Below are positions 415 through 23,969 of a stretch of 64,000 nucleotides of DNA, piece by piece. Source of the stretch: an uncultured Verrucomicrobiae bacterium (GTDB taxonomy: Bacteria > Verrucomicrobiota > Verrucomicrobiia > Limisphaerales > Palsa-1400); the NCBI GenBank assembly GCA_963707025.1, contig CAVPOM010000018.1:320001-384000 (forward strand), read 5' to 3'. The notes under the pieces were generated by a model. It did no database searches, was not told the origin of the DNA, and saw nothing but the letters and a program-made list of their open reading frames with translations. The position numbers were made by a program, and so were the translations under genes. Position 1 is the stretch's first letter. The number at the start of each line of letters is the position of its first letter.

Positions 415-569
415 CAGGCAGGGAAGGGCTTTGGGCACGGCAAAAGCATAATGTTTTCCGCCCCGCGCGCAACCCGCAATCCGCGGGCACCCCACCCCGC
501 CATGTTCCAGCATTTGATTTTTTTGGCGGAGTGGTTATTATTGGAAGGAATGAAGATGGAGAACGAGTT

Positions 570-1644: not shown

Positions 1645-1836
1645 ATGAGCACTCAGGAAATGCTGCTGGCGGAAATCAAGAACCAGCCTGAACCGGTGCT
1701 GCGCGAGCTCTGGCACTACTTGAGATATCTCACCCGGCAGCGGGAGGAGGAGAGGTGGGCCGATATGCTGCCAACGCGTGAAGTGGAACAGGAAGTATTG
1801 GACATCCTCGACGGCCATGAATCCGCGCCACGGTGA
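1645..1836 (+). CDS. Putative antitoxin (DUF2281-like) of a MazF-type TA pair
   Basis: 63-aa ORF MSTQEMLLAEIKNQPEPVLRELWHYLRYL overlapping the toxin start; GATAAT 6 nt before the ATG suggests a leaderless transcript. Confidence 0.7.
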   Translation: MSTQEMLLAEIKNQPEPVLRELWHYLRYLTRQREEERWADMLPTREVEQEVLDILDGHESAPR

Positions 1837-2134
1837 AGTCTGGTTGGTGGACATGGGACTGGCGGGGAAGACCCGCCCTGCGGTAGTGCTGCTAGCTGAC
1901 CACCTGAACACCCCGCGCTCGCTTATTATTCATATTCCAATCACGCGGCAGAATCGTGGCAGCGAACTGGAAGTGCCGCTGGGCCATTTGCCTTTTCTCG
2001 ACCCTGAGTCTGTGGCCAACACCCAGGGCGTTGGGGCTCTTCCTTCGATTCGATTTGAAAAACGCCTCGGCGTCTTGCCGGCGGCGGACTTAAAAGCCAT
2101 AAAAACCGCGCTCATCAAAGCCTGCGCATTATAG
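1817..2134 (+). CDS. PemK/MazF-family endoribonuclease toxin
   Basis: MNPRHGEVWLVDMGLAGKTRPAVVL...IPIT...KRLGVL: RG(E/D)VW, K.RP.VV and P(I/L)T signatures. Confidence 0.88.
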   Translation: MNPRHGEVWLVDMGLAGKTRPAVVLLADHLNTPRSLIIHIPITRQNRGSELEVPLGHLPFLDPESVANTQGVGALPSIRFEKRLGVLPAADLKAIKTALIKACAL

Positions 2135-2470: not shown

Positions 2471-2514
2471 GTTTCGAGCAGGAGGGCTTCACCGCTTTGC
2501 GAAAATCAGTTTAA
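2467..2514 (+). pseudogene. Internally deleted PIN/VapC toxin remnant
   Basis: GTG overlapping the antitoxin stop (GTGA), followed by FEQEGFTALRK, resembling the HFEQAGF.AL C-terminus of this PIN toxin type. Confidence 0.55.
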
Positions 2515-3846
2515 AGCGACGCCCTTGCGAATGTAGGTGGGCAGATCCAAATCCTCGCCGTGGCGGATGGTCGGCTCGCTTTTGTCGAAACGGCCTTTGA
2601 AAACTATTTCCAACGGCAGTTCCTTCTGCATGCGGGAGTTTTTGCGGCGGGCCTGCCCGGTTTGACGGGTGTAAAGCTGCTCCTTCTTTTCGTTGGACAA
2701 CTCCGGCGGAGGCGCGACGCAACGGGACGCAGGACGCGCCGTGGCCGACGGGTCGAGGAATTGCAGAGCGGCGGCGTCGGCCTTGCCCGGGGCTTCCGCC
2801 GGCGCGCCCGCCGGGGCGGAGGCGCGGGCGGACCAGGGCGCCGGTTCGGCGGGGCGGCGCCTGGAGGCAATGAGCATCACCGAGAGACGCCCGGTGAACG
2901 CCTCGTCAATGGCGGCCCCGAAAATCAGATGGGCGTTTTCACACTGGCGCTGGAGCGGCTCCATAATCTTGTTGACTTCGCTCATGGTCAAATCCGGGCC
3001 GCCCGCCAGGCTGACCAGGACGGCGTCGGATTCATTGAGGACCTGGCCGCCGTCCAGGAGGGGATGGGCCAGGAGCTTTTCCAGGATTTGTTCGCTGCGT
3101 TTCTCGCCGCCGGCCTCGGCCGTGGCAAAGGAACTGGCGACATGACGGCCGCGGGTGACCGAACACAGATCGGCGAAATCCACATTGATCAACCCGGTCT
3201 GGGTGAGCAGACGCCAGATGCCCCGCAGACCCTCGGCCATGAGGGTGTGGCCGATTTTAAAGGTCTCCAGGACGCTGGTTTTTTCATCCAGCAGCTTGAA
3301 TAGTTTCTGGTTGGGCAGGCAGATGACGGCGTCGGCGGCCGCTTTGAGCTGCTCCAACCCGGCCTCCGCCTGGCCCTGGCGGCGGCCGCCTTCGAAGTCG
3401 AAGGGGAGGATGGCCAGGGCCAGAACCAGCGCGCCGCCTTCGCGGGCCACGCGGGCCAGGACCGGAGCGGCGCCCGTGCCGGTGCCGCCCCCCAGGCCGG
3501 CGAGGATGAAAATAATGTCCGCCCCCGCGCAGAAGGAAGCCAGCCGCGCCGCATCGTCCTCGGCGGCGGCGCGGCCCTGTTCGGGATCCCCGCCGGTGCC
3601 CAGTCCGCGGGTGCGCTGCTGGCCGAGCACCCATTTGTCCGGCAGGGGCGAAGCGGCCAGGGCCTGGGCATCGGTGTTGAAGAGCAGAAAATCAACGCAG
3701 TCCAACTTGCTTTGGGCGATGAAGCCGGCGGCGTTGCAACCCGCGCCGCCGACGCCGCACACTTTGATGCAGATTTTCTTCTTGAGGGCGGCCTGGTCCG
3801 CTTTTTCCACGGACGCGCCGGGGGTGCTGGCAAAGGGGGTGGTCAT
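2506..3846 (-). CDS. ftsZ: Cell division protein FtsZ
   Basis: GVGGAGCNA, NTDAQAL, GLGGGTGTG, INVDFADL; C-terminal LDLPTYIR peptide. Confidence 0.97.
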   Translation of the reverse strand: MTTPFASTPGASVEKADQAALKKKICIKVCGVGGAGCNAAGFIAQSKLDCVDFLLFNTDAQALAASPLPDKWVLGQQRTRGLGTGGDPEQGRAAAEDDAARLASFCAGADIIFILAGLGGGTGTGAAPVLARVAREGGALVLALAILPFDFEGGRRQGQAEAGLEQLKAAADAVICLPNQKLFKLLDEKTSVLETFKIGHTLMAEGLRGIWRLLTQTGLINVDFADLCSVTRGRHVASSFATAEAGGEKRSEQILEKLLAHPLLDGGQVLNESDAVLVSLAGGPDLTMSEVNKIMEPLQRQCENAHLIFGAAIDEAFTGRLSVMLIASRRRPAEPAPWSARASAPAGAPAEAPGKADAAALQFLDPSATARPASRCVAPPPELSNEKKEQLYTRQTGQARRKNSRMQKELPLEIVFKGRFDKSEPTIRHGEDLDLPTYIRKGVALN

Positions 3847-8037: not shown

Positions 8038-9361
8038 TGAGCACCCCCAGTTTAGGCGCGTTTGCGCCGGAGACAACAGAGCCCGTGAGCGGTTGGGCGC
8101 GGGCGGCCTCAGCGGGGGGTTCTGCCGGGGTGCGCCTGTCCCCGGGGGCAGCAACATCCGGATTTCCGCCGCGCCCGCCAAATCCCGGCACGGCCGGAGT
8201 TTTGAGCACGGCGGCGCCCGGGGACGGGCGCGCGCCACACTGCCCGGCTGTGCTCCAGTGGAGCATGCGGTCGGCGATTTGGGCGGCGGCTTGGGGTGAA
8301 TGCCAGGCGCGCAAGGCCTGCCGCATCGCGGTGCGCTGGGCCGCGTTGCCCAGCAAGTCCAGTATTTCCTGCGTCAACAACCCCGGCGCAAGCGCGTCCT
8401 GCTCCAGGGCGCGGGCCGCGCCGCTGCGGGCGAAGGCCAGGGCATTGTGAAATTGATGATTGTCCACCGCCGCGGGATAGGGAATCAACAGCGCCGGGAG
8501 CTGGCAGGCCGCCAATTCGGCCAGGCAGGACGCCCCGGCGCGGCTGACGGCGACATCCGCCGCCGCCAGCGCCAGCGCCATTTCACCCAGAAACGCCCGC
8601 ACCACTGCCGGGCACTGGCGCGCCGCGTAGGCGGCCCGCACCTTTTCCAGATCGTCCGGCCCGGTTAAATGCACAAATTGCAACCGCGGCATGGCCTCCA
8701 GCAATTGGGGCAAAATGCCGGCGATCAATTCATTGATCCGGCGCGCCCCCTGGCTTCCGCCCATGACCAGCAGGACCGGCGCGTCCGCTTTCAACCCCAG
8801 GGCCGCTCGCGCCGCCGCCGCCGGACCCAACTGCAAAAATTCCTCGCGCACCGGCATGCCGGTGACTTCGATCCGGCGCGCGCGCAACCCTTCCCGGGCC
8901 GCGGCAAAATAAATAAACGCCCCGTCCACCATCCGCGCCAGCCAGCGGTTGGCGCGTCCGGGCACGCTGTTGGCTTCGTGCAAAAAGGTGCGCGCGCCCA
9001 GCCCTTTGCCGGCCAGGATGGGCGGCGCGGCGGTGAACCCGCCCATGGCCAGCACCAATTGGGGCGGGCGCTTTTTAAAACACAGGCTTGACAACCTGCG
9101 GGATTGCCAGAAGCGCCAGAAAAACCCCGCCGCGTTGCCCCGCGCCAGCCCCACCGCCGGCAGCCGCACCACTTCCATCTCCCCGGCCGCGGCCGCGGCC
9201 TGGCGGTCAATTTCCTTGCGCGATACCAGCAGGGTGACGGCGCAGCCGCGCCGCTGCAATTCCCGGCCCACCGCCAGCCCCGGAAACAAATGGCCGCCGG
9301 TGCCGCCACAGGCGATGGCGGCCACCTTGGGAAAGCTGGATGTGGCGGCGCAGTTATTCAT
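8030..9361 (-). CDS. murG: MurG N-acetylglucosaminyltransferase with a low-complexity C-terminal extension
   Basis: GGTGGHLFPG, HEANSVPGRAN, GGSQGA, SRAGAS, HQFHNA. Confidence 0.95.
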   Translation of the reverse strand: MNNCAATSSFPKVAAIACGGTGGHLFPGLAVGRELQRRGCAVTLLVSRKEIDRQAAAAAGEMEVVRLPAVGLARGNAAGFFWRFWQSRRLSSLCFKKRPPQLVLAMGGFTAAPPILAGKGLGARTFLHEANSVPGRANRWLARMVDGAFIYFAAAREGLRARRIEVTGMPVREEFLQLGPAAAARAALGLKADAPVLLVMGGSQGARRINELIAGILPQLLEAMPRLQFVHLTGPDDLEKVRAAYAARQCPAVVRAFLGEMALALAAADVAVSRAGASCLAELAACQLPALLIPYPAAVDNHQFHNALAFARSGAARALEQDALAPGLLTQEILDLLGNAAQRTAMRQALRAWHSPQAAAQIADRMLHWSTAGQCGARPSPGAAVLKTPAVPGFGGRGGNPDVAAPGDRRTPAEPPAEAARAQPLTGSVVSGANAPKLGVLNV

Positions 9362-10535
9362 CGCTCAACTTGGGGGACGCATCGAAGGGATTGGATTTTA
9401 CCGCCGCCGGCGCGGTGGCCGACCTGGAAATGCTCAACAAAAGACCCATGCTCACCAGCATCAACAATAAATTCGATCCCCCGTAGCTGATAAAAGGCAG
9501 GGGCATGCCTTTGTTGGGCAGCAGGCTGGTGGCCACACCCATGTTGATGAACGCCTGGAGGCTGACCATGAAGGTGATCCCGGTGGCCAGCAGCCGGCCA
9601 AAGGTGTCGGCCGCCCGGCGCGCGATGTAAATGCCGCAAAACATCAGCGCCACAAAAATCAACACCACCCCCAGCGTCGCCACCAGGCCCAGTTCCTCGC
9701 CGATGATCGCAAAAATAAAATCCGTGTGGTGCTCCGGAATGAAACCCAGTTTCTGCCGGCTGTCGCCCAGGCCCAGGCCCGTCCACCCGCCCGCTCCGAA
9801 GGCGATCATGGCCTGATAAGCCTGGTAGCCCGTCAGGTCCTTGCTCAACTCGGGATGAAGCCAGGCCAGGATCCGCTTCAGACGCATCGGATCATGCAGC
9901 AATGACAACGCCAGCCCGCCCGCCGCCAGTAGGACCGGCGGCGCCAGATAGACTAGCCGAACCCCGGCCACAATGAGCATCGCCCCGGCCACCGCCGCCA
10001 GCAGAATGGTGCAGCCTCGATCCGGTTCCTTGAAAACCAGCGCCAGCGGAACAACGAGGATTGCGATGGGAATGGCCAGACCGAATTTCAAAGTGCCCAT
10101 TTGCCGCTGGTAACGGTCCGCATACGCCGCCAGGAACAAGATCATGGCCAGTTTGGCCAGTTCGGAAGGCTGGAAGTGTGGAAGCTGGGGATGGTAGGGA
10201 ACACCAATCCAACGATGCGCCCCCGACCTGCCGCCGGCACTGCTCCCCGCCTTGGCCGCCCAGCCAATGTGCGGCACAAAAACCAAAATGAGAAGGAGAA
10301 CCGCCAAGAGCAGAATCCAAGGCGCCATTCTTTTCAACCGCCGGTAATCCACCGCCGCCGCCGCCGCGCACCCCGCCAGCCCAAGGGCGCCCCAAACCAT
10401 CTGCGACCGCAGGAAATCAGAGCCGACCGCCGACCGGTTCAACTCTATATTCATGCTCGAACTGTAGAGCGTGATCATTCCCAGCCCCAGCAACACGGCC
10501 ACACAAAAAACCAGGATGCTCGTGGCTCTGTTCAT
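9354..10535 (-). CDS. ftsW: SEDS peptidoglycan polymerase FtsW
   Basis: GAHRWI, FQPSELAK, PEHHTDFIFAIIGEELG, LPFISYGGS. Confidence 0.95.
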   Translation of the reverse strand: MNRATSILVFCVAVLLGLGMITLYSSSMNIELNRSAVGSDFLRSQMVWGALGLAGCAAAAAVDYRRLKRMAPWILLLAVLLLILVFVPHIGWAAKAGSSAGGRSGAHRWIGVPYHPQLPHFQPSELAKLAMILFLAAYADRYQRQMGTLKFGLAIPIAILVVPLALVFKEPDRGCTILLAAVAGAMLIVAGVRLVYLAPPVLLAAGGLALSLLHDPMRLKRILAWLHPELSKDLTGYQAYQAMIAFGAGGWTGLGLGDSRQKLGFIPEHHTDFIFAIIGEELGLVATLGVVLIFVALMFCGIYIARRAADTFGRLLATGITFMVSLQAFINMGVATSLLPNKGMPLPFISYGGSNLLLMLVSMGLLLSISRSATAPAAVKSNPFDASPKLSDE

Positions 10536-10629
10536 AACAGCATTGTCCGCCTCACGAAAATCCAAAATGCAAGGCGGACGTTCCGACTGAGGCCGTCGGA
10601 CGTCCCGCTCAAACCGGTGGGGCGATCCA

Positions 10630-11466
10630 CTAATTCGCCCGGATCATGGGCGCCGGCGCGGCACCGCCGGATACGGGAGCCGGGACCGCCGCCGTTGGGG
10701 CCGCGGCGGGAGCCGCGTCCGCCGAAGCCATTTTCATCACCGGTACTTTCAGTTTTTGACCGGCTTTGATGGCCGAGGTCTTCATGTCGTTGAGCGCCAG
10801 GATGGCTTTGACCGAGGTGTTGTGCGTCTTGGCGATTCTCACCAACACGTCGCCGGATTTGACGACGTAGAGGGTCGCATCGCCGGAAGCGGTCGCGGCA
10901 GCATCGCCGCCGGCCTTGACCGCATCGGTGGCGGCAACCGGGCTGGCCGGGATTTGCAACTTCTGTTTAACTTGCAGCTTCTTCGGATCAACGCCCGGAT
11001 TGGCCTCTTCCAGAGCCTTGAGCGTAACCCCGTTCTTTCTGGCAATGGTGCTGAGCAAGTCACCGGCGGCAACCACATAGACACTGCCTCCCGTGGCCGG
11101 CGCAACCGCTGGTGTATTCAACGGCGGCGTCACGGTCGTGGCCGGCGTTGTCGCCAAGGCGGGCAAAGTGCCGCTGGCGCCGGCGCCCGGCAATGTCGCG
11201 GCGCCCGGCGTCGTGCCAGATGGGGAGGTCATAGGAGCCGGGGTGGAAAGGTCGGTGCCCGGTGCGGTCGTGGGGTTGGCCGGGCCGCCGGCCACATCAT
11301 CCGTTTTGGGTTTCTCCGTGGTGGCCGTGTTTTTGCATCCCACCATCAAGATGCCGCCGAGCACGACGATATGCACGACAAAGATCATCAGGATTTTGAA
11401 ATAGAGGTTGGATCTGGCCGACGGGGGCAAAGTTCCCTGCGGCAGGAGTGGATTGGGAGTATTCAT
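10630..11466 (-). CDS. Membrane-anchored protein with two LysM domains
   Basis: N-terminal TM ending VGC, Pro/Thr/Ala linker, YVVAAGDLLSTIARK and YVVKSGDVLVRIAK LysM repeats. Confidence 0.9.
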   Translation of the reverse strand: MNTPNPLLPQGTLPPSARSNLYFKILMIFVVHIVVLGGILMVGCKNTATTEKPKTDDVAGGPANPTTAPGTDLSTPAPMTSPSGTTPGAATLPGAGASGTLPALATTPATTVTPPLNTPAVAPATGGSVYVVAAGDLLSTIARKNGVTLKALEEANPGVDPKKLQVKQKLQIPASPVAATDAVKAGGDAAATASGDATLYVVKSGDVLVRIAKTHNTSVKAILALNDMKTSAIKAGQKLKVPVMKMASADAAPAAAPTAAVPAPVSGGAAPAPMIRAN

Positions 11467-11878
11467 AGATTTGCGCGCTGCTTTCGTTTTTTTTGAGGTT
11501 TATTTATTTGTTAATTTGCGCCGGGGTTTTTCCTCAAAAAACCCCGGAGCAAAGCATAAATTCATCACTTTTTATTCCAAAAATCTCTAACACATCACTT
11601 TCGCATTCCTTATGCCCGCTGCATCTTGTGGCCCCGGCGCGGCCCACCACCACCAATGGGGCGCCGCCGCCCCCGTTTTAACCCAGGCAACAAAACCCCC
11701 GGCAGTTGAGTTGATTGAATTTTTCAACGCGCCAACGAGCCGGACACGGCCAACACAAGTTCTTTTGAAACGAAAAAATCTCCGTTTCCTGGTTCATTTT
11801 TAGCAACCCTGGCCGCGGCTGGCAAGCAGGAAAAAGCGAATTTTTTTCAGGCCTCATGGTGCTCGCGATCTTCATGGG

Positions 11879-13033
11879 TTACCGGATCTTGAGGGTGGAG
11901 AGGGCCACGACGGCGCAGAGCACGCCCAGGATGTAAAAACGGGTGACAATCTGGGATTCATGCCAGCCTTTTTTCTCGAAATGATGATGGAGCGGCGCCA
12001 TGAGAAAGACCCGCCGCCCCTGGCCATAACGGAGTTTGGTGTACTTGAACCAGCTCCGCTGCACGATGACCGAGCCGGCTTCGGCCACAAAAACCCCGCC
12101 GGCAATGGCCAGAACCAGGGGCTGATGGATCAGCACCGCGATCATGCCCAGCCCGCCCCCCAGCGCCAGCGAACCGGTGTCCCCCATAAAAAGGCAGGCG
12201 GGGTGGCAATTGAACCAGAGGAAACCCAGCCCCGCCCCCAGCATGGCCGCGCAAAAAACCGTCAACTCGCCCGCCCCGGGCACATGCGGGATTTGCAGGT
12301 AGGCCGCGGTCCGGGCGTTGCCCGCCAGATAAGTCAAGACCAAAAAAACGAAGGAAACGATGACGGTGCAGCCGATGGCCAGGCCGTCCAGGCCGTCGGT
12401 CAGATTGACCGCGTTGGAGGCGCCCACAATGGTGCAGCCGGTCAGCACAATCCCCAGCGCCGCGCCGGCCCCGCCCGTCAGCACGGGGTATTTGTAGAAC
12501 GGCACCATCACCTGGCTGATGAGGGTGGTGGTGGCCGGCAGCTTCCACAAGTAGCCCGCCGCAAAGAGGGCCAGGGCGCCCTGCACCCAGAGCTTGATGA
12601 ATTCGCGCAGGCCGCCGCTGTTCTGCCGCGTGATCTTGGCGTAGTCGTCTATGAATCCCAGCCCGCAGAGGACGATGACGGAAAACAGGGCGAGCAGGAT
12701 CTGGGTGTTCCACTGCGCCCAGATCATGGCGGTGACGTCCAGCACCAGGACGATGAGCAGCCCGCCCATGGTGGGAGTGCCCTTCTTGCTGACAAACTGC
12801 GCCGGCAGCCCGCCGCCTTCATGGGCGCGGTCCTCATACTCCTGTCCGAACCTCAACTGCTTGAGCCAGAGAATAAAACGGGGATACAGCCACCAGCTCA
12901 GCAGCAGGGCCGTCACCGCCGCGCCCGCGCTGCGAAAGGTGATGTAGCGGAACAGGCGCAGGGGCGAGGCGAAAGGTTCCAGGAAGGTCCCGGCCGCCAG
13001 CTCCATCGTTTTTTGGCTCAGGTAATAAAACAT
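11879..13033 (-). CDS. mraY: Phospho-N-acetylmuramoyl-pentapeptide transferase MraY
   Basis: KKGTPTMGG, GFIDDYAK, NAVNLTDGLDGLA, FMGDTGS, MAPLHHHFE. The frame is open upstream to an ATG at 13201 overlapping the murF stop. Confidence 0.95.
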   Translation of the reverse strand: MFYYLSQKTMELAAGTFLEPFASPLRLFRYITFRSAGAAVTALLLSWWLYPRFILWLKQLRFGQEYEDRAHEGGGLPAQFVSKKGTPTMGGLLIVLVLDVTAMIWAQWNTQILLALFSVIVLCGLGFIDDYAKITRQNSGGLREFIKLWVQGALALFAAGYLWKLPATTTLISQVMVPFYKYPVLTGGAGAALGIVLTGCTIVGASNAVNLTDGLDGLAIGCTVIVSFVFLVLTYLAGNARTAAYLQIPHVPGAGELTVFCAAMLGAGLGFLWFNCHPACLFMGDTGSLALGGGLGMIAVLIHQPLVLAIAGGVFVAEAGSVIVQRSWFKYTKLRYGQGRRVFLMAPLHHHFEKKGWHESQIVTRFYILGVLCAVVALSTLKIR

Positions 13034-13197
13034 ATCAGTCGTGGCGCCGCGGTTCGGCGGACGCTCCCGCCCAGGCGCGGCGCGCCGCCGCCAGGCGGAA
13101 CAGGAATCTGGGATAGCCGGCCTGCGCCAGCCGGTCTCGCTGCGTCCCCGCAAACCCGGCCCGGCACAGCCAGGCGCGGACCGACCCGCTTTTTCTG

Positions 13198-14595
13198 TCA
13201 TTTTTCATTTTTGCTCCTTAAGTTGCACAAGGTTTCCGTGATCCGTTCCAGCCGCATGATGCGCGAGGCCTTGACCAGCACGGCGTCGCCCGGGCGGGCA
13301 AAGTCGTTCACCGCCTGCGCCGCGTCGTCCAAGTCCAAAAATTCCGCCACGCTGCGCAGGCCGCTGCCGCGGGCCGAGGCGGCCATTTCCGCGGCGCGCG
13401 TCCCGATGGCGAACAAATGATCCAGTCCCAGTTCGGCGGCGCGGCGGCCCACCTCGGCGTGGGCCGGGCCGGAGGATTGGCCCAATTCGGCCATGTCGCC
13501 CAGCACCGCCACCCGCCGGCCCTGGCAGGGAAGGGCCCGCAGCGTTTCCAGCGCAGCCAGCATGGAATCGGCGTTGGCGTTGTAGGCGTCGTCCAGCACC
13601 CGCACCCCGCCGGCCTGGCAGAGTTGCAGGCGCATTTTCGAGGGGGCGCAGGCGGCCAGGCCGCGCGCGATAGGCGCGCGCTCCAGCTCCAATTCGGCCC
13701 CCACGGCCAGGGCCAAAAGCGCGTTGGCCACCTGATGTCGGCCCAGAAGCTGGATCTGATACTGCCCGTCCAGCCGCGGCTGGCGGCAGCGCACCCAAAA
13801 AACCGAGCCGGTGTCGTCGCTGCGAATGTCCACCGCCCTGTAGTCGTTGCCCTCATTGCAGCCGGTGCGGATGACGCGGGCGCAAGAGCGCGGCACCATG
13901 GATTCAGACCAGCCGTCATCGCCGTTGATAAAAAGCGTGCCGGAGGCGGACAAACTTTCCGCCATCGTTCCCTCCTCGCGCGCCACCCCGGCCAGGTCTC
14001 CAAAAAACTCCAGATGCTCGCGGCCGATGTTGGTCACGACCCCGTGGGACGGGGCGATCATTTGCACCAGCGGGGCCAATTCGCCCGGGTGGTTGGAGCC
14101 GGCTTCCAGCACGGCGGCCTGGTGGCAGCGCTCCAGCCGCAACAATGTCAGGGGCACCCCGATTTCATTGTTGAAACTGGCTTCGCTCCAGAGCGCGGCT
14201 TTTTGCTGGCGCAGGACCGAGGCGATCAATTCCTTGGTCGTGGTTTTTCCATTCGATCCGCCGACGGCAATGACGGGCAGATCGAAGTCGCGGCGGTAAC
14301 GGGCCGCCAGTTCACCGAGGGCGCGCCGCGTGTTCTCCACCGCGATGACCGCGCACGGGCAGAAATCGGCGGGCAATTTGTCCCGCTCCGCCACGATGGC
14401 GCCCACCCCGCGCCGCGCCACCTCGGCCAGGAGGCGGTGGGCGTCGAACCGCGCGCCCGCCAGGGCGAAGAACAGATCCTCCGGCTCCGCCAGGCGCGAA
14501 TCGGTGCAGAGGCGCGCCACCATTTTGCCGGGGGAACCGTGGCGCAGTTCACCCGAGACGGCCTGGGCGATATACTGGAGCGGGCGCGGTTCCAT
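13198..14595 (-). CDS. murF: UDP-MurNAc-tripeptide--D-Ala-D-Ala ligase MurF
   Basis: GSNGKTTTKE, NNEIGVPLT, DAYNAN, LGDMAELG, LVKASR. Confidence 0.95.
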   Translation of the reverse strand: MEPRPLQYIAQAVSGELRHGSPGKMVARLCTDSRLAEPEDLFFALAGARFDAHRLLAEVARRGVGAIVAERDKLPADFCPCAVIAVENTRRALGELAARYRRDFDLPVIAVGGSNGKTTTKELIASVLRQQKAALWSEASFNNEIGVPLTLLRLERCHQAAVLEAGSNHPGELAPLVQMIAPSHGVVTNIGREHLEFFGDLAGVAREEGTMAESLSASGTLFINGDDGWSESMVPRSCARVIRTGCNEGNDYRAVDIRSDDTGSVFWVRCRQPRLDGQYQIQLLGRHQVANALLALAVGAELELERAPIARGLAACAPSKMRLQLCQAGGVRVLDDAYNANADSMLAALETLRALPCQGRRVAVLGDMAELGQSSGPAHAEVGRRAAELGLDHLFAIGTRAAEMAASARGSGLRSVAEFLDLDDAAQAVNDFARPGDAVLVKASRIMRLERITETLCNLRSKNEK

Positions 14596-14652
14596 CGGCT
14601 AGGGCAATGAGAAAGGTGGCGGCATGGGGCCTGGATTTTTAGGTTTGACTCA

Positions 14653-16551
14653 CTAATTGCTTTTCACGGGACGGGGCCCGGCCGGAGAAGCGGCGGCGGC
14701 CAGCGCCGGGCTGGCGGGGGCGGCGGGGTCAAGGTCGGGTTTGAGGTTCAAATAATTGGCGGCGCGCTCGGCGATGGCCTTGAAAATCGGGCCCGCCGCC
14801 CCGCCGCCGAAATGGTCGCCCTTGGGCGGTTCATCAATGAACACGGCAATGCACAGCTCCGGGTTGTCCGCCGGGAAAAAGCCGAGGAAGGAACTGAAAT
14901 ACTTGTCGCTCACGTAGTGCCCGTTCTCCACTTTTTCCGCCGTGCCGGTCTTGCCGGCCACCGTGTAGCGCTCCAGGCGGGCCTTGGGCGCGGTGCCCTC
15001 CTTGCCCACCACCGTTTTCAGGGCGGTGACGAGCTGATTCATGGCCTCGGGGCGCGCGACCTGCCGCACCGGCTGCGGGTTATATTTGACAACTACCCGG
15101 CCGTCCGCGTCCACCAGCCGGTCCACGATCATGGGGCGCAGCAACAGGCCCTGGTTGGCGATGGCGCTCATGGCCATGACCATCTGCAACGGGGTCACGG
15201 CGATGCCCTGCCCCATGGGAATCCGGGCCAGGGAGATTTTGGTCCAGCTTTTGACCGGGGGCACGCTGCCATAAACTTCGCCCGGCAGAAAAATGCCGGT
15301 GCGGGAGCCGAAACCAAAGTCGCGCATGTATTGGTAAAGGGCGGCTTCGCCCAGGCGCAGCCCGATCTTGGCGGCGCCAATGTTGGAGGATTTGGTGATG
15401 ATGCTTTGCACCGACAGATCGCCATACGATTCATGATCATGCAGCGTCGCCCCCGCGTAGGCGAAATGCCCGTGCTCGCAATTGAAGATGTCGGTCAGGC
15501 TGACCAGGCGCTCGTCCAGCGCGCCGCTGACCACCACGATTTTAAAGGTGGAACCCGGCTCGTGGTAGTCGGCGATCACCCGGTTGCGCAGCGCCTCCGG
15601 CGGATACGCGCCGGGGTGGTTGGGATCGAAGGTGGGGCAATTGGCCAAAGCCAGAATCTCTCCGGTGCGCGGGCGGATCATGACCGAGGAGATGCTGATG
15701 GGGCAAAGCTGGCGCATGGCGGCGGCCAGCTCCGACTCCACGATGTCCTGCAAGCCGGCGTCCAGGGTCAAAACCACATTGAGTCCGTCGCGCGGCTCGA
15801 TGTCCTCGTCCCGGTAAGCCACCAATTCGCGCTGGCGCTTGTCCAGTTCGGTGTGCCGCCAGCCGGGGATGCCGCTGAGCTTGGAATTGAATTCCAGCTC
15901 GATGCCGTTCATGCCGGTTTGTTCTTCGCCTTCCCCGCTGATATAACCGACCACATGGGCCGCGAGGGTCTGGCCCGGATATACGCGCTTTTGCTCATCG
16001 CTGGCAAAAACCGCCTTGGCGCGCAGCGAGCGGCAGAATAATTGCTCCTCGCTCTTGAGCCTGGATTCGTCCACGCCCAGGGAAAGGGTGGCCATGGCGC
16101 GCCTGACTTTTTCCCAGGTTTCCAGGGAGGCCTGGTGTTGGAGAACCACGTAATGGGAGAGGTTGGTTTTGCCGCCCGCCACGACCAGGCGCGGGGCCAG
16201 GCGATCCAGCAGATAATCCTCGTTGGTTTGCAACAACGGGGCCAAAGCATGGGCCACCGCCGCCCGGCAGTTGACCGCCAGGGACGGCTGGGGGCAGATC
16301 AGCAGGGCCGGATCGGCGCAGATCAGCTTGGCCGGGATGCTGGTGGCCAGCGGATTGCCGCGGATATCCAGAATCTGGCCGCGCATCGGCTCGCGGGCGA
16401 TGGTGCGCACGGTGTTGTTGGCGGCCAGGCCCAGCAATTCTTCGTGCCGGACGACCTGCAGATTGACCAACTGCCCCGCCAGCAAGGCGAAGGCGGCCAA
16501 CAACCCGAAGGCCAGCCCCATCATTTTCCGATACTGCCAGACCACGCTCAT
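14653..16551 (-). CDS. ftsI: Class B penicillin-binding protein FtsI
   Basis: RGQILD, EPGSTFK (SxxK), SSN, GKTGTA. Confidence 0.93.
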   Translation of the reverse strand: MSVVWQYRKMMGLAFGLLAAFALLAGQLVNLQVVRHEELLGLAANNTVRTIAREPMRGQILDIRGNPLATSIPAKLICADPALLICPQPSLAVNCRAAVAHALAPLLQTNEDYLLDRLAPRLVVAGGKTNLSHYVVLQHQASLETWEKVRRAMATLSLGVDESRLKSEEQLFCRSLRAKAVFASDEQKRVYPGQTLAAHVVGYISGEGEEQTGMNGIELEFNSKLSGIPGWRHTELDKRQRELVAYRDEDIEPRDGLNVVLTLDAGLQDIVESELAAAMRQLCPISISSVMIRPRTGEILALANCPTFDPNHPGAYPPEALRNRVIADYHEPGSTFKIVVVSGALDERLVSLTDIFNCEHGHFAYAGATLHDHESYGDLSVQSIITKSSNIGAAKIGLRLGEAALYQYMRDFGFGSRTGIFLPGEVYGSVPPVKSWTKISLARIPMGQGIAVTPLQMVMAMSAIANQGLLLRPMIVDRLVDADGRVVVKYNPQPVRQVARPEAMNQLVTALKTVVGKEGTAPKARLERYTVAGKTGTAEKVENGHYVSDKYFSSFLGFFPADNPELCIAVFIDEPPKGDHFGGGAAGPIFKAIAERAANYLNLKPDLDPAAPASPALAAAASPAGPRPVKSN

Positions 16552-17139: not shown

Positions 17140-18066
17140 CTACAATTTTTCCATCACCCGGCATTGCGCGCTGCGGCTGCGCGGGTTCTCGCCCAATTCC
17201 GCCGCGCCGGGCCGAATCGCCTTGCGCTGCACCCACCGCAAAATCGCCGGGCGGGGCCGCCGCAACTCCGGCACATCCGGTTCGCCGGCTTCGTAACCCC
17301 GCGCCAGCCGGCCGCCAAATTTCTTCACCACGCGGTCCTCCAATCCGTGGAACGAAATTACGGCCAGCCGGCCGCCCGGTTTTAAAATCTTCACCGCCGC
17401 TTCCAGTCCCCGTTGCAGATGCCCGCTCTCGTCGTTCACCACCGTGCGCAGGGCCAGAAAGACCTTCGTGGCGGGATGGCCTTTTCTGCCGCCGCGGGGC
17501 GAAACTCTCTCAATCAATTCCGCCAATTGCCCCGTCCGCTGCAAAGGCCCCGTCTCCCGCTCCCGCGCGATGGCCCGCGCAATCCGCCGCGCCTTCGCCT
17601 CGCCCCCGTATTCCCAAAAAATCTCCGCCAGCTCTTCGGCCCCGGTCTGATTGACCAGCGCCGCCGCCGTCAGTTCCTGTGCCGGGTCCATTCTCATGTC
17701 CAGGGGGCCGTCGCTCTGAAAGCTGAAGCCCCGCTCCGGCCGATCCACCTGGACCGAGCTAAGCCCCAGGTCCAAAATCACCCCCTCGCAGCTCCCGGCC
17801 TCGATCCACTGGTCCAGGTCGGCGAAACTGCCGTGCCGGATTTCAAACCGTCCCGCGAACTCCGCCAGCCGCGCTCTGGCCGCTTGCACCGCCGCTCCAT
17901 CCCGGTCGCATCCAAACAGTTTTCCAGTCGGCCCGCTGGCCCGCAGCAGCGCCGCCGCGTGCCCGCCGCCGCCGACGGTCCCGTCCGCGTAGCAGCCCCC
18001 CGGCCTGGGCCGGAGCGCCGCCAGGACCTCCGTTGTCAAGACTGATTTGTGAAAATACTCGGGCAC
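17140..18066 (-). CDS. rsmH: 16S rRNA m4C1402 methyltransferase RsmH
   Basis: DGTVGGGGH, DLGLSS, RGFSF..DGPLDMRMD, ISFHGLEDR, NPRSRSA. Confidence 0.96.
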   Translation of the reverse strand: MPEYFHKSVLTTEVLAALRPRPGGCYADGTVGGGGHAAALLRASGPTGKLFGCDRDGAAVQAARARLAEFAGRFEIRHGSFADLDQWIEAGSCEGVILDLGLSSVQVDRPERGFSFQSDGPLDMRMDPAQELTAAALVNQTGAEELAEIFWEYGGEAKARRIARAIARERETGPLQRTGQLAELIERVSPRGGRKGHPATKVFLALRTVVNDESGHLQRGLEAAVKILKPGGRLAVISFHGLEDRVVKKFGGRLARGYEAGEPDVPELRRPRPAILRWVQRKAIRPGAAELGENPRSRSAQCRVMEKL

Positions 18067-18756
18067 TTAACATGGCTTCCAGGGCGGTGTCTGCGCCAGT
18101 TCCGCCGGAGACGCGGCGGGCGCGCGCGGCGCCACGGACTCCAGGCTTTCGTCCTGCCCCGGGCTTTTCAGTTTGATCCAGCGTGCCGTCACGCGCGTCC
18201 AGGGATTTCCGGCCGCCCCGCCCCCTTCGGCCTTGGCGGCGCGGGAGTCCTCCGGCCTGGCTTGCACCGCCACCACCACCACGTCGGCGTCGCTCAAATC
18301 GTTTCTAATCACCCTCACTTTCTCCAATGCCAGCTCGGCCTGGGCGCGCGGGCCGGCGTCGGCCGACGGGGCGCCCAGCCGATCCCGGAGATGCGCGACG
18401 GTCTTTGGGACAAAAGCCACCACCGCTGCAAGGAACGCTCCTAATTTTGCGCACCGGCGAAAAAAGACTTTGGGCGCCTGAGGCGGAGGGACCCGATCTG
18501 TCCGATCCGCCGGGTCCGCCCGCTCCGCCCTGTTTTCAGGCAGCGCCGCCGCCGGCGCCTTTGCCGCCGCGAACAGCACCGGCTGGGCGGAGGGCGCGGC
18601 CTGGCTGGCGGGAAGCGGCCCCGCCGCCGCCGCGCGCGCGGCCGGTCCGAATTTTGGAAACTTGTTCACGTTGCGCAAGCTGTAGGCCCCGGTCCGGTCT
18701 TTCGCCCGATCCAGCGTATGGCCCATCGTCAGTAAGGTGATGAGGCGTTTTTTCAT
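18067..18756 (-). CDS. Hypothetical protein embedded in the dcw operon
   Basis: ATGA overlap with the mraZ stop; its stop abuts the rsmH start; contains RAQAELALEKVRVIRNDLSDAD. Confidence 0.75.
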   Translation of the reverse strand: MKKRLITLLTMGHTLDRAKDRTGAYSLRNVNKFPKFGPAARAAAAGPLPASQAAPSAQPVLFAAAKAPAAALPENRAERADPADRTDRVPPPQAPKVFFRRCAKLGAFLAAVVAFVPKTVAHLRDRLGAPSADAGPRAQAELALEKVRVIRNDLSDADVVVVAVQARPEDSRAAKAEGGGAAGNPWTRVTARWIKLKSPGQDESLESVAPRAPAASPAELAQTPPWKPC

Positions 18757-19181
18757 TCGAGGGATTTGAGCGCGCTCGCCACCACTCGTTTTTCCTGCGA
18801 GTGCATGTCCGCGTAGCGCGCGGTGCTCCATATTTCAAAGTAGTCCAGCATTCCGGCAAAAACCGCCTCGTCGCCGATGCCCACCGTCTCGGCCATTTCG
18901 GCGGGGATGACGATCCGCCTGGCGCTGTCCAGTTCCACCTTGACCGAGGAACTGCCGATGTGGCGTTTGAGCGAGGTCTTTTCGGGGGCGGCCATGTTCT
19001 CAATCTTTTCCCGGAGCTTGTCCAATTGGTCCGGCGGCAAAACCCGCAGGCAGGGGCCGCAATCGTGCTGCGGCCAGACGATCATGGTCAACTCCACCGG
19101 TTTGGCGGTCCGCCACGCCAGCGGCATCTGCACCCGCCGGTTCGCATCCACCGTGTAACGGTAGAGCGATTGATACGTCAC
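18753..19181 (-). CDS. mraZ: Transcriptional regulator MraZ
   Basis: VDANRRVQMP, LDSARRIVIP, GMLDYFEIW. Start uncertain: in-frame GTG at 19181; an out-of-frame ATG at 19203 could be the true start if there is a 1-nt indel. Confidence 0.9.
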   Translation of the reverse strand: MTYQSLYRYTVDANRRVQMPLAWRTAKPVELTMIVWPQHDCGPCLRVLPPDQLDKLREKIENMAAPEKTSLKRHIGSSSVKVELDSARRIVIPAEMAETVGIGDEAVFAGMLDYFEIWSTARYADMHSQEKRVVASALKSLE

Positions 19182-19225: not shown

Positions 19226-19308
19226 GCCAATACCACACTAGCACAATGAAACACATTTCTCCACATATTTCTCCGAATTTCCCCGATAATAAACACTTTT
19301 TCCCATAT
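19226..19308 (-). promoter_or_regulatory. MraZ-binding repeat array upstream of the dcw operon
   Basis: Minus strand ATGGGAAAAA GTGTTTATTA TCGGGGAAAT TCGGAGAAAT ATGTGGAGAA ATGTGTTTCA TTGTG: roughly 10-bp-periodic TGGG/GTGG-like units. Confidence 0.65.
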
Positions 19309-19333
19309 TCGTCAATGGAAATTTTAGGAAAAG

Positions 19334-19354
19334 TTATTCACAAAGTTATTCACA
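19334..19354 (+). promoter_or_regulatory. Two tandem DnaA-box-like sites
   Basis: TTATTCACA at 19334-19342 and 19346-19354; both match TT(A/T)TNCACA. Confidence 0.6.
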
Positions 19355-19374
19355 ACGTGCTATGCTCGATTCTA

Positions 19375-20457
19375 ATGCCGTCCGGATTGCGCACCGCCGA
19401 TTTCGAAATGGACATCCCGCCCGGATTGATCGCCGCCCGGCCCGCCGCCGCCCGCGACCAATCGCGCCTGCTGGTGGCGCACCGCGACTCCCAAGTTATT
19501 GAACATCAACAGTTTCCATTCCTGCTGGAACATCTGCGCAGCGGGGATGTGCTGGTCTTGAACGATTCGCGCGTCATCCCCGCCCGCCTGCGCGGACGCA
19601 ATCCTCAGACCGGCGGCCACTTTGAAATCCTGCTGCTGGAAGAAACCGGGACCAACGTCTGGTGGGCCATGCTGCGCCCGGGCCGCCGCGCGCGGCTCGG
19701 CACGCGCATCGAGATTCTCGACCATCGCCAGTGGCCAGCCGGCATCGCCGCCACGGTCGAGGAAATCAACCTCGCCGGCCACCGCCGCCTGCGCTTCTCC
19801 GAAGTCAATAATATATTTACCGAACTGGACGCGCTGGGCGAAGTCCCGCTGCCGCCTTACATCGGCCGGGACGGCACGGAGCCGGAGGACCGCGCACGGT
19901 ATCAGACGGTTTATGCCCGCGCGCCCGGCAGCGTGGCGGCCCCCACGGCGGGTTTGCATTTCACGGAGGCGCTGCTGGAAAAGATCCGCGCGCGCGGCGT
20001 GAAAATTGGTTTCGTGACCCTGCATGTGGGCGCGGGAACTTTTGCGCCGGTCAAGGCGGAATTCCTGGCGGAGCACCGCATGCACCGGGAGCGGTTTGAA
20101 ATCCCTCCCGAAACCGCGCGCCTCATCGCCGAAGGCAAGGCGGCCGGGGCGCGCCTGGTGGCGGCGGGCACGACCACGCTGCGCGTTTTGGAAAGCGTGG
20201 CGGCGGCGAACGCCGGGCAGATCGTCCCCGGGCGCGGCGCGACGGATATTTTCATTTACCCGCCGTTTGAGTTTAAAATTGTTGACTCGCTCCTCACTAA
20301 TTTCCACTTGACACGCTCCACCCTGCTCATGCTGGTCTGCGCCTTTGCCGCGCCGGGGGGGACGGGCGGGCGGGCATTCATTTTCCGGGCCTACCGCGAG
20401 GCGGTGGAGCGGCGCTACCGCTTTTTCAGCTACGGCGACGCCATGCTGCTGCTGTAG
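19375..20457 (+). CDS. queA: tRNA preQ1 S-adenosylmethionine ribosyltransferase-isomerase QueA
   Basis: NDSRVIPARL, PLPPYI, GSVAAPTAGLHFT, LHVGAGTF, TNFH, RFFSYGDAML. Confidence 0.96.
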   Translation: MPSGLRTADFEMDIPPGLIAARPAAARDQSRLLVAHRDSQVIEHQQFPFLLEHLRSGDVLVLNDSRVIPARLRGRNPQTGGHFEILLLEETGTNVWWAMLRPGRRARLGTRIEILDHRQWPAGIAATVEEINLAGHRRLRFSEVNNIFTELDALGEVPLPPYIGRDGTEPEDRARYQTVYARAPGSVAAPTAGLHFTEALLEKIRARGVKIGFVTLHVGAGTFAPVKAEFLAEHRMHRERFEIPPETARLIAEGKAAGARLVAAGTTTLRVLESVAAANAGQIVPGRGATDIFIYPPFEFKIVDSLLTNFHLTRSTLLMLVCAFAAPGGTGGRAFIFRAYREAVERRYRFFSYGDAMLLL

Positions 20458-20506: not shown

Positions 20507-23066
20507 TCAGTTTGCATCCAGAATGTTTATGCTGGCCAGGGGGCGGCGGCTCGGCCTGAGCTGGAAAAAATGGGATTTCCCGTCCTTATAACCGTCGCTG
20601 TAAGCGTCCGGAAACATGCGGAATACGGGCGCCCAGCAAGTGAGCGTGCCGTCCTTCGCCAAGGCCCAGGTCTCGAAGTCGTCCGCCGAGGCGGTCAGCC
20701 AGTCGTGGTATCGGCTCGGGCGCTTGGTTTGAAACGAGGTGCGGTCAATCGCCCAAAATGTGCCATCCGCCTCGAGAGCAATGAATTGAAAAGCACCGTA
20801 AGACACGCCCAACCAATCTGATTTGGTTCCGATGCGACCAAGCTCCAACACGCCGCCTTTGGGGATTTGAGAGCCGAAAAGGGTGGTCGCCGCCCACGGG
20901 TTTACATAGGCTTGACGAAGACCGCCGGCCCACAGGGTGCCATCGGTGCGAACGGCCATTGTCATCCAATCATAGCCCGCCAGGGACGACCAATTGGTCC
21001 CTTCCAAGTCCGTGCGGACCAATCGGTAATAGACAGAGTAGTTGGTGATGCCTCCCTTCACGGGCGTGCCGTCGTAGCCCCAGGTCCAGATGCTCCCGTC
21101 GCGCTTGACGGCCCTGGCCTGCCCCGTCGCAAAGACATCCACCCAATCCGATTCCGGCCAAAGCTGAACAGGATCAGAAATGGCCATCGGGCGCCCATTT
21201 GTGCCGAGTCGGGTGGGGAGGGCCCCAAATTGATCGTATCCCCATCCCCAGATCGTGCCATTCTCTTTGAGAGCCAGGAACAAACTTTGTCCCGCAACCA
21301 CCTTCTTCCAATCCGAATCAGATCCAATTTGGCCGGAAGCCCCCTTGCGGGTAAACTTCCAGAGCGTGCCGTCTGATTTGAGGACGGCCGCGCCTTCGGA
21401 GCGGCTGGCGGCCAGGTCCACCCAGTTGGAGCCGCCGACCCAATGGCCGGAAAGATTTTTGAACGCGCGATCCGGCCGGGTTCGATCCGTTTGGCCAGCC
21501 CAGAGCCGTCCATCGGGCAGCATGGCATAAAAATATCCATCCGACCATGCCTCGGCAATCATGGCCCGCCCCGGGCCGCTCAAGCGGGCCGGGCCGTGGC
21601 GCGGTTCCAGCGGCAGGACATATTCCCAAGCGCGGGCGTAAATCGCGCTGGCCGCCAGCAACGCGGAGAGGAACACGGCGGTGAGCCAGATGAAATTCCC
21701 CGTCCAGAGGCGCCAGCCGGTTTGCAAAACTTTGTAATTGCGGAAGGCCAGCCAGAAATAGGCGATGAGCATGGCCGGCCCGGCAAGAGCAGGAGAAAGC
21801 CAGCCGCCAAAACTAATCACGCCCGAGCCAAGGCCGGTTTTCGGCAATACAATTCCAACGGCTGTCAAGAATAGGATTGGAAAGAGCAAGCCCACCGTGA
21901 AGGCTTGCAACATGCCGCGGCTCATGGTGGAGGCGAAAAAGGAAACCGCGGCGGTGATGGCGGCGGCTGCGACAAGTTTTTGCAACGGGTCGAATCCGAT
22001 CCATTGCCCGGCTGGCGCCGCCCACATTTTCCAACACCCAGGGAACCACCCCGCCCAGCACAATTCCCAGCGCCATCACCACCGCGAATTTGACCAGGAA
22101 TGGACTCCTCTGGCGCGCCGGCAGGCAGAGAAGACCTTCCAGGGTGTTGTAGCGCCGCTCCTCCGCCACCGCCACGCATCCCACCACAAAAGGCGCCGCC
22201 AGCCAGAGAAGCCCCGCGAACTCAAGAACCCCCGTGTTCGCCGCCCACGCCGGCGCAAAATGCCGCACGGCCAGCGCCGCCAGATGCAGGAGCAGGAGCA
22301 AGGGAACGATCATCATCGTCAACTCCTGCAATTGCAGTTCCTTGAAAATCAGCGCGAGCCACGGGCCGCGCCGTTCCTGGAATCCGAAGCCGAGCCAGCG
22401 CAACGGCAACCCTCGCATCTTCGGCAGGGAAACCTGCCGGCCCGTCCAGGCCAAAGGCACATCCTCCGCGCCCAGGAAGAGCTTGCGCGCCGCAAAAAAT
22501 CCCAGCGCCGAATAGGCCGTCATGACGCAAAAGACGGCCCGTTCCATCAAGGCACCGTTGTCAATCCAATGCAACAAAGCGAGGACCGTGGCCATGAGTA
22601 ATGCGGCTGGGGCGATGACGGCGGCAAAGAAAGCCGTGGTGACATCCCGCAACAACAGCGTGCTCCAGAGCCCGCTGGAAAAGGCCACGAGCGCCGCCAC
22701 CCCGCTGCCCACGGCCATGTCCGTAAAAGAATCGAAATAAAAATCATAAGAGAAAAATTGAAGGCTCAACCACCCGCACAAGACAAACACGGCCCAGGCG
22801 CTCAGCATCGCCAGAGCGAGCAGCCCGGCCTTGATCCTCCAAAAACGCTCGCGCTTTTCCGGCTGGCTCAAGAGGAGGCCGAACGTCCCGCAACTCATTT
22901 CCTGTCCAAATGGAGTCAAACCTAAGAATAATATCGCCAGGTCAAAACACGGCATGGTCGCGCCTTGATAATTCCGCCCCGCCCAAAGCGGCAGCGTGGC
23001 CGCCGCCAGCGCCGCCACCCAGGCCGGCCGCAGCAACCGCAATTCCTTGCGCAGCAGGGCATTCAT
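20507..23066 (-). CDS. ABC transporter permease with a C-terminal RCC1-like repeat domain (frameshift near 22010)
   Basis: MNALLRKELR start, two permease-like halves (LIFKELQ, AEERRYNTLE); continues in another frame (GQWIGFDPL...) into ALKENGTIWGWG, AVKRDGSIWTWG and AVRTDGTLWAGG repeats. Confidence 0.75.
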
Positions 23067-23969
23067 AATTTCGCCGGGCTGAGGATTTTGGAGGAGACAA
23101 AAATCTCCTCCAGCGACAACGCTTCGCAGCGCACTTCCTCCGGGTCGGCAGGCCCGCAGGATTTCCAGCAGCGGCCCGCTCGACCCGTTGCAGAGCAATT
23201 CCAGCTCGCGCCCGTTGCGCCGCACCTCCAGCGCGCCGGGCAGCTTCACGGAGAGCGGCAGCGGTTCGGCAAAACGGGCGCGGATCTTTTGGAATCGCTC
23301 GCGCGCGCTGTCCGCCTCCATCGTCAAAATCCCCCGCCCCTGCTCGATGATGGTGAATTCGTCAATCAATCCCTCAAACTCCGCGATCAGGTGCGTGGAG
23401 ACAAAAACCGTGCGGTTCTCCGGGTCGCCCGACTGGTAGGCGCCGATGACCGTCTCGATGAATTCGCGGCGCACGATCGGGTCCAGCCCCGAAGTCGGCT
23501 CGTCCAGCACGAGCAATTCCGGCTCCGGCGCAATGGCGCTGATCAAGGCCAGTTGCGTTCTCTGGCCTTTGGACAAGTGGGACGTTTTTTGGCCGGGGTC
23601 CAAATGGAAGCGTTGCAGCAGGCCCGCCTCGACCCCGCTGTTCCAGCGCGGCCGGAAGGACGCCAGATAATCCAGCGTCTCCCGCACGGTCATCCACGGA
23701 TAAAACGCCACGGCATCCGGCACGTAGCAAAGGCGGGACTTGACGGCCACTTCCTCCTTCCCCGGGTCCAGGCCAAAGACGCGCACCGTCCCCGCCGTGG
23801 GCTGAAGCAGGTTGAGCAGGCATTTGATCGTGGTGGTCTTGCCCGCGCCGTTGCGGCCGAAAAAGCCGTAGCAGCGCCCCGGCCGCACGCTCAGGTTCAG
23901 GCCGTTGACCGCGTCCAATTTCCCATAGCGCCGCGTCAAATCCTTGATTTCGATAATCGGAGAATTCAT
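23063..23969 (-). CDS. ABC transporter ATP-binding protein (frameshift near 23145)
   Basis: GRNGAGKTT, LSKGQ, LVLDEPTSGLD, STH. The natural end PEEVRCEALSLEEIFVSS...KL* is in another frame and overlaps the permease ATG. Confidence 0.88.

Follow-up and report, generated by a model that had tools for sequence, protein, structure and literature searches.

A disordered protein encoded between mraZ and rsmH in an order of Verrucomicrobiota shares a short conserved motif with the FtsZ tail

In roughly four out of five genomes from a large and for the most part uncultured order of Verrucomicrobiota, the division operon is headed by an unstudied gene whose product shares a short linear motif with the tail of FtsZ. 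The gene is undescribed and belongs to an unnamed, order-wide family of the dcw cluster. Its 229-residue product is predicted to be disordered and is conserved in separate modules, one of which resembles the FtsZ motif above controls and agrees with three of the four consensus positions of the β-clamp-binding motif. We tentatively propose, with less than even confidence, that the protein is a membrane-surface adaptor whose docking site would be common to FtsZ and FtsK, most likely the pocket of the sliding clamp DnaN; that it acts in division and shares a partner with them is suggested by gene position and motif. The gene was studied in a stretch of 64,000 nucleotides from one genome (the window, from whose first letter all coordinates are counted) together with relatives from the order and beyond. 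Its immediate surroundings are as follows.

18067..18756, minus strand: gene for the disordered protein of 229 residues, between mraZ and rsmH, with orthologues and synteny across the order and no folded domain
18753..19181, minus strand: mraZ (PF02381), its start taken from the gene model
17140..18066, minus strand: rsmH (mraW; PF01795), immediately 3' of the stop of the 229-residue gene
19286..19315, minus strand: sigma-70-like promoter match 5' of mraZ, a pattern match only (10/12 consensus)

The start of the 229-residue open reading frame overlaps the stop of mraZ (ATGA at 18756-18753), and its stop abuts the GTG of rsmH at 18066. This placement between mraZ and rsmH, with translational coupling to both, is unusual. 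The coupling had been described in an earlier note on this DNA for the single locus, and it extends to the whole order: rsmH follows in all of the first 31 loci and mraZ precedes in 30 of them, while the corresponding counts are 77 and 76 among 78 more diverse loci. The region upstream of mraZ has two sigma-70-like sites, compared to 0.3 in shuffles; queA (window 19246-20457, plus strand) is divergent from mraZ, and sigma-70-like matches are found on both strands of the gap.

A profile search detected the family in 164 of 201 genomes of the order, and the first profile detected it in none of 300 genomes drawn from the wider phylum (with at most 10 candidates scored per genome), so the earlier suggestion of a lineage-specific factor holds across the order. 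At E ≤ 0.001, the family profile matches 2270 representatives. The order is probably the Pedosphaera/Limisphaera group. Among the matches listed, most of the in-order genomes missed by the profile hold a diverged reading frame at the same place. A deeper profile gave five weak matches outside the order, of which four are frames of ~100 residues directly 5' of rsmH; this short form, from one family, keeps the N-terminal module and a C-terminal amphipathic helix, lacks the Q motif and RNDL, and also has an acidic EPDILDD block. The fifth match looks spurious, with no rsmH beside it. Searches with the 229-residue protein gave no Pfam match at E-values up to 1, no NCBIfam match for the query (with six single-member stray matches among 147 sequences), and no match among PDB sequences, and the ESM Atlas held no usable match for two family members. 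No publication on this gene appeared in the accessible portions of the literature searched, which covers few subscription papers, and the available part of PMC8871954 does not mention it.

The wider dcw cluster (window 7102-14653) contains murF, mraY, murG, murB, ddl, ftsW, and ftsI and lacks murC, murD, and murE, none of which was found elsewhere in this 88%-complete genome. The tripeptide-recycling ligase Mpl is present above cut-off (the site given with the mur finding is C17:95.6-97.0 kb of G000). Mur_ligase_M matches number three each in G000, G015 (97% complete, 5 contigs), G452, and G034 and five in G059, and the cluster shape without the three genes is seen in 7 of 20 clusters compared. 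This gene content suggests that several families do without the usual de novo stem-tripeptide route and may use salvage or an unknown enzyme instead, a point that may surprise more than the FtsZ motif and on which the accessible portions of the literature searched hold nothing. A double-LysM protein with an N-terminal hydrophobic stretch is encoded between mraY/murD and ftsW (window 10630-11466); its gene is at that place in 19 of 20 clusters compared, the remaining locus being incomplete. A PemK/MazF-like toxin gene (window 1645-2134, plus strand) is convergent with the end of ftsZ, and an overlapping frame of 63 residues upstream of it is probably its antitoxin. The window also encodes an M48 (HtpX-like) membrane peptidase (531-1493, plus strand) and, at 21813-23969 on the minus strand, an ABC ATPase and a permease-like protein as one 718-residue frame whose junction looks odd and may reflect a frameshift or an error of assembly.

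Alanine and proline make up 21.8% and 10.9% of the 229-residue protein, in agreement with the earlier description of its bulk as Ala/Pro-rich. A Pro/Ala-rich linker, which varies in length, separates four conserved islands: an N-terminal helix with Y-x-[LM]...LPxF, the motif Q-x-E-L-x-L-[ED], the block V-x-V-x-RNDL-x-x-x-D-x-x-VV, and a W/R-rich C-terminal helix. An AlphaFold2 model based on 147 sequences has a mean pLDDT of 59.7 and a pTM of 0.18 and contains three isolated helices (residues 5-10, 106-126, and 185-195), with no strands and no predicted transmembrane helix. In order along the protein, the features are:

18649..18750, minus strand: N-terminal module, residues 3-36, a short helix (predicted at 5-10) followed by Y-x-[LM]...L-P-x-F
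18571..18585, minus strand: second clamp-like motif, pentameric Q-x-x-L-F, Q58-F62, in the Pro/Ala linker
18379..18441, minus strand: predicted helix 106-126, a basic and aromatic stretch, candidate membrane-binding segment
18316..18342, minus strand: motif shared with FtsZ, Q-x-E-L-x-L-[ED]-x-[VI], Q139-V147, from profile comparisons
18271..18315, minus strand: family-specific module V-x-R-N-D-L-x-x-x-D-x-x-V-V, residues 148-162, absent from FtsZ
18172..18204, minus strand: W/R-rich C-terminal amphipathic helix 185-195, candidate membrane-targeting sequence

The N-terminal module, with L8, L9, Y25, P34, and F36 each in at least 90% of 147 sequences, is the most widespread part of the family, retained even in the short form outside the order, and the RNDL module is the best-modelled stretch of the protein (pLDDT 73). 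These two modules are more family-specific features than the Q module, and MraZ, RsmH, and self-association are candidates for what they bind. The hydrophobic moment is 0.61 at residues 96-106 and 0.70 in helix 185-195, which is missing in some family-level orthologues; from these predictions, the amphipathic helices would bind the membrane. A QxxLF-type motif occurs in 31 of 134 representative linkers, compared to 4.7 in shuffles, in a set where kin are not independent.

The resemblance to FtsZ was originally noted as an ungapped alignment of residues 137-156 (window 18348-18289, minus strand) with residues 405-424 of the 446-residue FtsZ (window 2634-2575, minus strand). The alignment stands, with 10 of 20 identities plus a terminal D/E pair, and the FtsZ segment does lie just before LDLPTY, ending 8 residues ahead of it. 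When the FtsZ 20-mer was used as the query against 61,200 six-frame reading frames of one genome (8.96 million residues), the 229-residue protein was the only non-self match with at least 10/20 identities; in the reverse scan, FtsZ ties with two unrelated frames at 10/20. Alignments of both families, built from 133 segments of 137 representative proteins and from 43 in-order FtsZ sequences, show that the shared positions are the conserved ones: in the 229-residue family and FtsZ, respectively, the frequencies are Q 100 and 91%, E 99 and 47%, L 84 and 100%, L 100 and 100%, E or D 95 and 91%, V or I 99 and 82%, R 100 and 95%, and S 68 and 74%, where the former values are biased upward because the segments are top profile matches anchored on RND.

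Profile-profile alignment with hhalign pairs the same columns (P=0.021, probability 2.2%), and the profiles of the full proteins align in the same register (P=0.03). The profile score also exceeds that of shuffled controls, and neither of the refuting outcomes named in the earlier note was therefore obtained. None of 250 column-shuffled decoys reaches the score: the two blocks score 21.5 against each other (0/150 shuffles, maximum 14.0), and the whole 229-residue protein scores 23.4 against the FtsZ tail (0/100 shuffles, maximum 14.4). When 18 real families of division and replication proteins are compared, the score is 27.3 for FtsZ and no higher than 17.0 for any of the remaining 17. Over 4911 predicted genes, the PSSM of the 229-residue family places FtsZ at rank 6 (8.3 bits, compared to 51.5 for itself), and the FtsZ PSSM places the 229-residue protein at rank 3 (13.8 compared to 62.3); the absolute signal is small, and each partner scores with the best of the background without standing apart from it. 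Since the pair was picked after the fact, the statistical match is suggestive and not decisive.

What remains of the proposed resemblance to the C-terminal region of FtsZ is a linear motif of nine residues, not twenty. The first nine columns cross-rank at 17 and 9 of 4911, the last nine at 2862 and 2033, and decoys reach the observed score in 0/80 cases for the first halves and in 23/80 for the second halves. Moreover, the invariants of the second halves are mutually exclusive (N100/F100, L99/K81, V92/K72, and V60/G98, as percentages in the 229-residue family and FtsZ). Homology over 20 residues was accordingly dropped, the similarity stopping after the first module. Nothing in the 229-residue protein is similar to the anchor peptide LDLPTY, and, when aligned with the D-[IVL]-P-x-[FY]-[LI]-R core, the RNDL half and the N-terminal LPxF block both fail to outscore decoys; the idea that LPxF mimics the anchor peptide was abandoned on that ground. 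Among 78 genome orthologues, 65 have both modules, 2 the Q module only, and 11 RNDL only (one orthologue being classified by eye), and one family has five residues inserted between the two. The modules are thus separable in both proteins, which identifies the shared piece as a short linear motif.

The C-terminal peptide of FtsZ is the anchor for FtsA, ZipA, and SepF. The 229-residue family draws attention to a second motif that is conserved in the FtsZ tail of Verrucomicrobiota and precedes this anchor peptide:

2602..2628, minus strand: FtsZ tail motif QKELPLEIV, Q407-V415, in a disordered stretch
2509..2595, minus strand: FtsZ extended C-terminal peptide GRF[DE]KSEPT...GEDLD[VL]PTY, a separate module absent from the 229-residue protein

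Q407, L410, and L412 are each found in at least 90% of 51 FtsZ sequences, and residues 397-420 are modelled with pLDDT below 50. FtsZ from other orders reads Q-x-x-[LF]-x-[LF] in seven of nine cases, 10-14 residues from an RG-x-F block. The FtsZ of the window (2506-3846) falls just below the TIGR00065 cut-off (281.9 compared to 295.2), in-order orthologues go down to about 30% identity, and one genome, G010, has a second, unrelated-looking FtsZ with an ordinary tail. On this evidence, the Q motif is older in FtsZ than in the 229-residue protein, to whose core it is accessory. Strict co-loss of the two motifs was considered and dropped, as the FtsZ motif is kept without the Q module in some genomes (G055, G421, G376, and G428). 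Only one possible case of co-change was seen: in four genomes of two families, the FtsZ Q is replaced by H and the Q module is absent, which may be a single event. Such loose co-occurrence fits a third-party hub better than mutual binding.

A third carrier, of a similar motif, is FtsK. A loop inserted in its motor domain reads [EQ]-x-E-L-[PA]-L in 19 of the 21 in-order sequences listed (24 of 30 loci were parsed), with E at the first position in 15/19 and Q in 4/19; the loop of this genome reads QPVLPL, and two of three FtsK sequences from outside the order have Q-x-E-L-D. Starting from either profile, hhalign reaches the loop unprompted, though weakly (P=0.33 and 0.21). The insertion is itself conserved, with ~45 residues comprising an ELPL motif and then an acidic GFAVE...EEI block (C18:617950-618645 of G000).

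To our knowledge, DnaN is the only receptor of this motif pattern, and it is for this reason that we favor it. According to the available part of a clamp review (PMC11139829), clamp motifs are pentameric, Q-φ-x-[LM]-[FL], or hexameric, Q-φ-x-[LM]-x-[FL], with a tolerant position 2, L or M as the only residues listed at position 4 of natural motifs, and acidic flanks that help; E. coli Pol III α ends in the motif QVELEFD, and a Q-to-E change at position 1 strongly reduces affinity. That part of the review mentions neither FtsZ nor FtsK, and the accessible portions of the literature searched, which covers few subscription papers, contain no report of a clamp motif in FtsZ. A QxxLxL clamp-like motif in both proteins had been offered as an alternative in the earlier note; it accounts for the data better than a mimic of the FtsA or anchor type does, and the shared motif agrees with the hexameric consensus at positions 1, 4, and 6 and departs from it at position 2. 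Position 1 is Gln in all 133 segments and in 91% of 43 FtsZ, FtsK departing from it, and position 6 is Leu throughout the 229-residue family and FtsZ. At position 4, the 229-residue family has L in 84%, M in 2%, and W in 14%, and in-order FtsZ has L in 100%, while F occupies it in five of seven out-of-order FtsZ motifs. Both motifs lie in predicted disorder and are followed by E or D (95% in the 229-residue family, 91% in FtsZ). Position 2 is not aliphatic, being G, T, A, or S in 48 of 55 orthologues and K, G, or P in FtsZ. With this one defining position unmatched, the shared motif is a putative clamp motif, which would work like the known ones.

Comparison with other proteins of the lineage gives a divided picture. 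In this genome, DnaE has QDTLF, DNA ligase QPNLF, and RNase HII QTELF, none with an aliphatic position 2, and one MutS of the lineage has QPELNLF; by contrast, position 2 is aliphatic in 27 of 29 lineage MutS and in all 13 of the DinB-type polymerases listed, and alignment with the 229-residue profile did not pick up the motifs of MutS or DinB. Divergent orthologues of the 229-residue protein swap between clamp-type forms (QMELPL with a 5-residue insert, QGELF in place, QGEFGF, QQDLF, and QPTLF). In 28 DnaN sequences, TDGRRL, GNYPNY, and MPMR, which we take to be the residues around the clamp pocket, show little or no variation. E at position 3 is conserved in 99% of the 229-residue segments, whereas clamp motifs vary there, and the hydrophobic alternation, which continues into the RNDL block, suggests one long extended binding strand. 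Hexamers of this kind are common in the genome and not enriched (Qxx[LF]x[LF], 1244 observed compared to 1431 in shuffles; QxELxL, 33 compared to 38), and the Q motif is dispensable for the family, given that 11 of 78 orthologues do without it, as does the short form from outside the order. A single co-folding job of two DnaN chains with FtsZ 392-446 and residues 128-198 of the protein, run without controls, gave scores of 0.02 and 0.21 against a mark of 0.32 and is counted neither for nor against the clamp. We count in favor of the clamp the conserved shared columns, the free-standing module, the form swaps, the second QxxLF copy, the FtsK loop, the published consensus, the motifs of this genome's DnaE, ligase, and RNase HII, the conserved DnaN pocket region, and the predicted disorder. 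We count against it the non-aliphatic position 2 when set beside MutS and DinB, the failure to align onto their motifs, E at position 1 in FtsK, W or F at position 4, the near-invariant E3, the strand-like run into RNDL, the lack of genome-wide enrichment, the dispensability of the motif, the loose co-presence, and the upward-biased frequencies.

Several other explanations have to be weighed, two of which, coincidence and a hub other than the clamp, come close to the preferred reading in likelihood. The similarity could be a coincidence in which unrelated constraints preserve the two motifs: the one might, for example, be the first strand of a 25-residue Q..RNDL..VV unit with MraZ, RsmH, or another molecule of the same protein as its binding partner, and the other might be part of the extended FtsZ tail. 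We consider this somewhat less likely than the preferred reading. The reciprocal top-0.1% ranks fall where each of the two disordered regions, encoded in one operon, is best conserved, 0/250 shuffled and 0/17 natural decoys reach the score, and a third division protein, FtsK, has a similar conserved loop; the two families (four genomes) with the FtsZ Q-to-H change and no module add to this, even if they may reflect one event. On the other hand, the hhalign probability is just 2-6% at the whole-protein level, the PSSM scores are not separated from background, the pattern consists of common residues without enrichment, the pair was chosen post hoc from a 64-kb window, and co-occurrence is loose. 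Even if the match is a coincidence, an unnamed order-wide dcw family remains. A copied piece of the ftsZ 3' end, that is, true homology acting as a decoy tail, is largely refuted and very improbable: the ungapped register over 20-25 columns, the further alignment of R, D/E, S, and D/E in the second half, and the location of both genes in one operon would suit it, but the second-half invariants exclude one another and these halves score like decoys (23/80), no anchor peptide is present, and the oldest form of the family is without the segment.

The motif might also serve a hub other than the clamp. In that case [QEH]-x-[EQ]-L-x-L would be a shared docking motif by which the adaptor shields or competes with FtsZ and FtsK, and candidate hubs are an AAA+ protease or adaptor domain, such as the N-domain of ClpX, which binds short hydrophobic tethers, as well as FtsA and some lineage protein. 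No such hub was found in this analysis, and the Q frequencies of 100% and 91% in two of three carriers, together with QxxLF swaps typical of clamp motifs, make it somewhat less likely than the clamp in our judgment. It would nonetheless account for a common core E-L-x-L in a motif that tolerates residues other than Q at its first position, such as E in FtsK and H in some FtsZ sequences, for the departure of this core from the Q-φ pattern of lineage MutS and DinB, and for the fact that all three carriers are division proteins; ClpXP sites are also described in the E. coli FtsZ linker in the available part of PMC3983244. A direct interaction, in which like strands pair and the 229-residue protein, bound to the tail of FtsZ, serves as its membrane anchor in a SepF- or ZipA-like manner, draws on the dcw position, the amphipathic helices, the long linker, and the finding of no SepF in this 88%-complete genome. 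We regard it as highly unlikely, because some orders and genomes in which we did not find the protein, or did not find its motif, nevertheless retain the motif of FtsZ, no folded FtsZ-binding domain is predicted (pTM 0.18), and FtsA is present.

Our preferred reading, a membrane-surface adaptor docking on DnaN, can be put as a tentative mechanism. The first transcript of the division operon would yield a soluble, intrinsically disordered adaptor that displays a number of short linear motifs and is probably held on the inner membrane surface by two or three amphipathic helices. Its Q-x-E-L-x-L-[ED] would have arisen convergently with the motifs of the FtsZ tail and the FtsK loop, because, as we propose, all three dock on one hub, most likely the hydrophobic pocket of DnaN. 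With a non-aliphatic position 2, binding of the motif would be weak, and avidity could be supplied by the additional QxxLF copy that some orthologues have and by the many FtsZ tails of a filament. The adaptor may then either hold the hub close to the membrane or act as a competitor of FtsZ for it, and Z-ring assembly would in this way be linked to replication or termination; the common partner, its identity as DnaN, and the effect on division are all points that we infer from sequence. In the broadest form, which we hold to be doubtful, FtsZ throughout the Verrucomicrobiota, and in this order also FtsK and the adaptor, would carry functional clamp motifs that wire the divisome directly to the replication clamp, with the adaptor setting the clamp engagement of FtsZ. 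Should the FtsZ motif bind DnaN, it would constitute a direct physical link between the Z-ring and the replisome, of which the accessible portions of the literature searched, covering few subscription papers, hold no example of this kind.

SepF, ZipA, and SepH are membrane-tethered accessories of division. The 229-residue protein is like them in being lineage-restricted, linked to division by its position, and equipped with a predicted amphipathic segment and a long Pro-rich linker, whereas it differs from them in having no folded domain, transmembrane helix, or family match. Membership of SepF or ZipA was ruled out, as there is no folded FtsZ-binding domain, no strand, and no Pfam, NCBIfam, or PDB match. 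The shared motif recalls the FtsZ C-terminal peptide as a short conserved motif in the disordered tail of a dcw product; however, it lies about 25 residues upstream of the anchor, of which the 229-residue protein has no copy. In comparison with clamp motifs, the shared motif has a non-aliphatic position 2, a near-invariant E3, and sometimes W or F at position 4, and its carriers here are division proteins, whereas the partners covered in the available part of PMC11139829 are replication and repair enzymes. Yet, like clamp motifs, it lies in disorder and interchanges with pentameric QxxLF, and it has the Q1, the L4, the L/F6, and the acidic residue next to them that characterize the hexameric motif of Hda, Pol IV, and Pol III α in that part of the review (PMC11139829).
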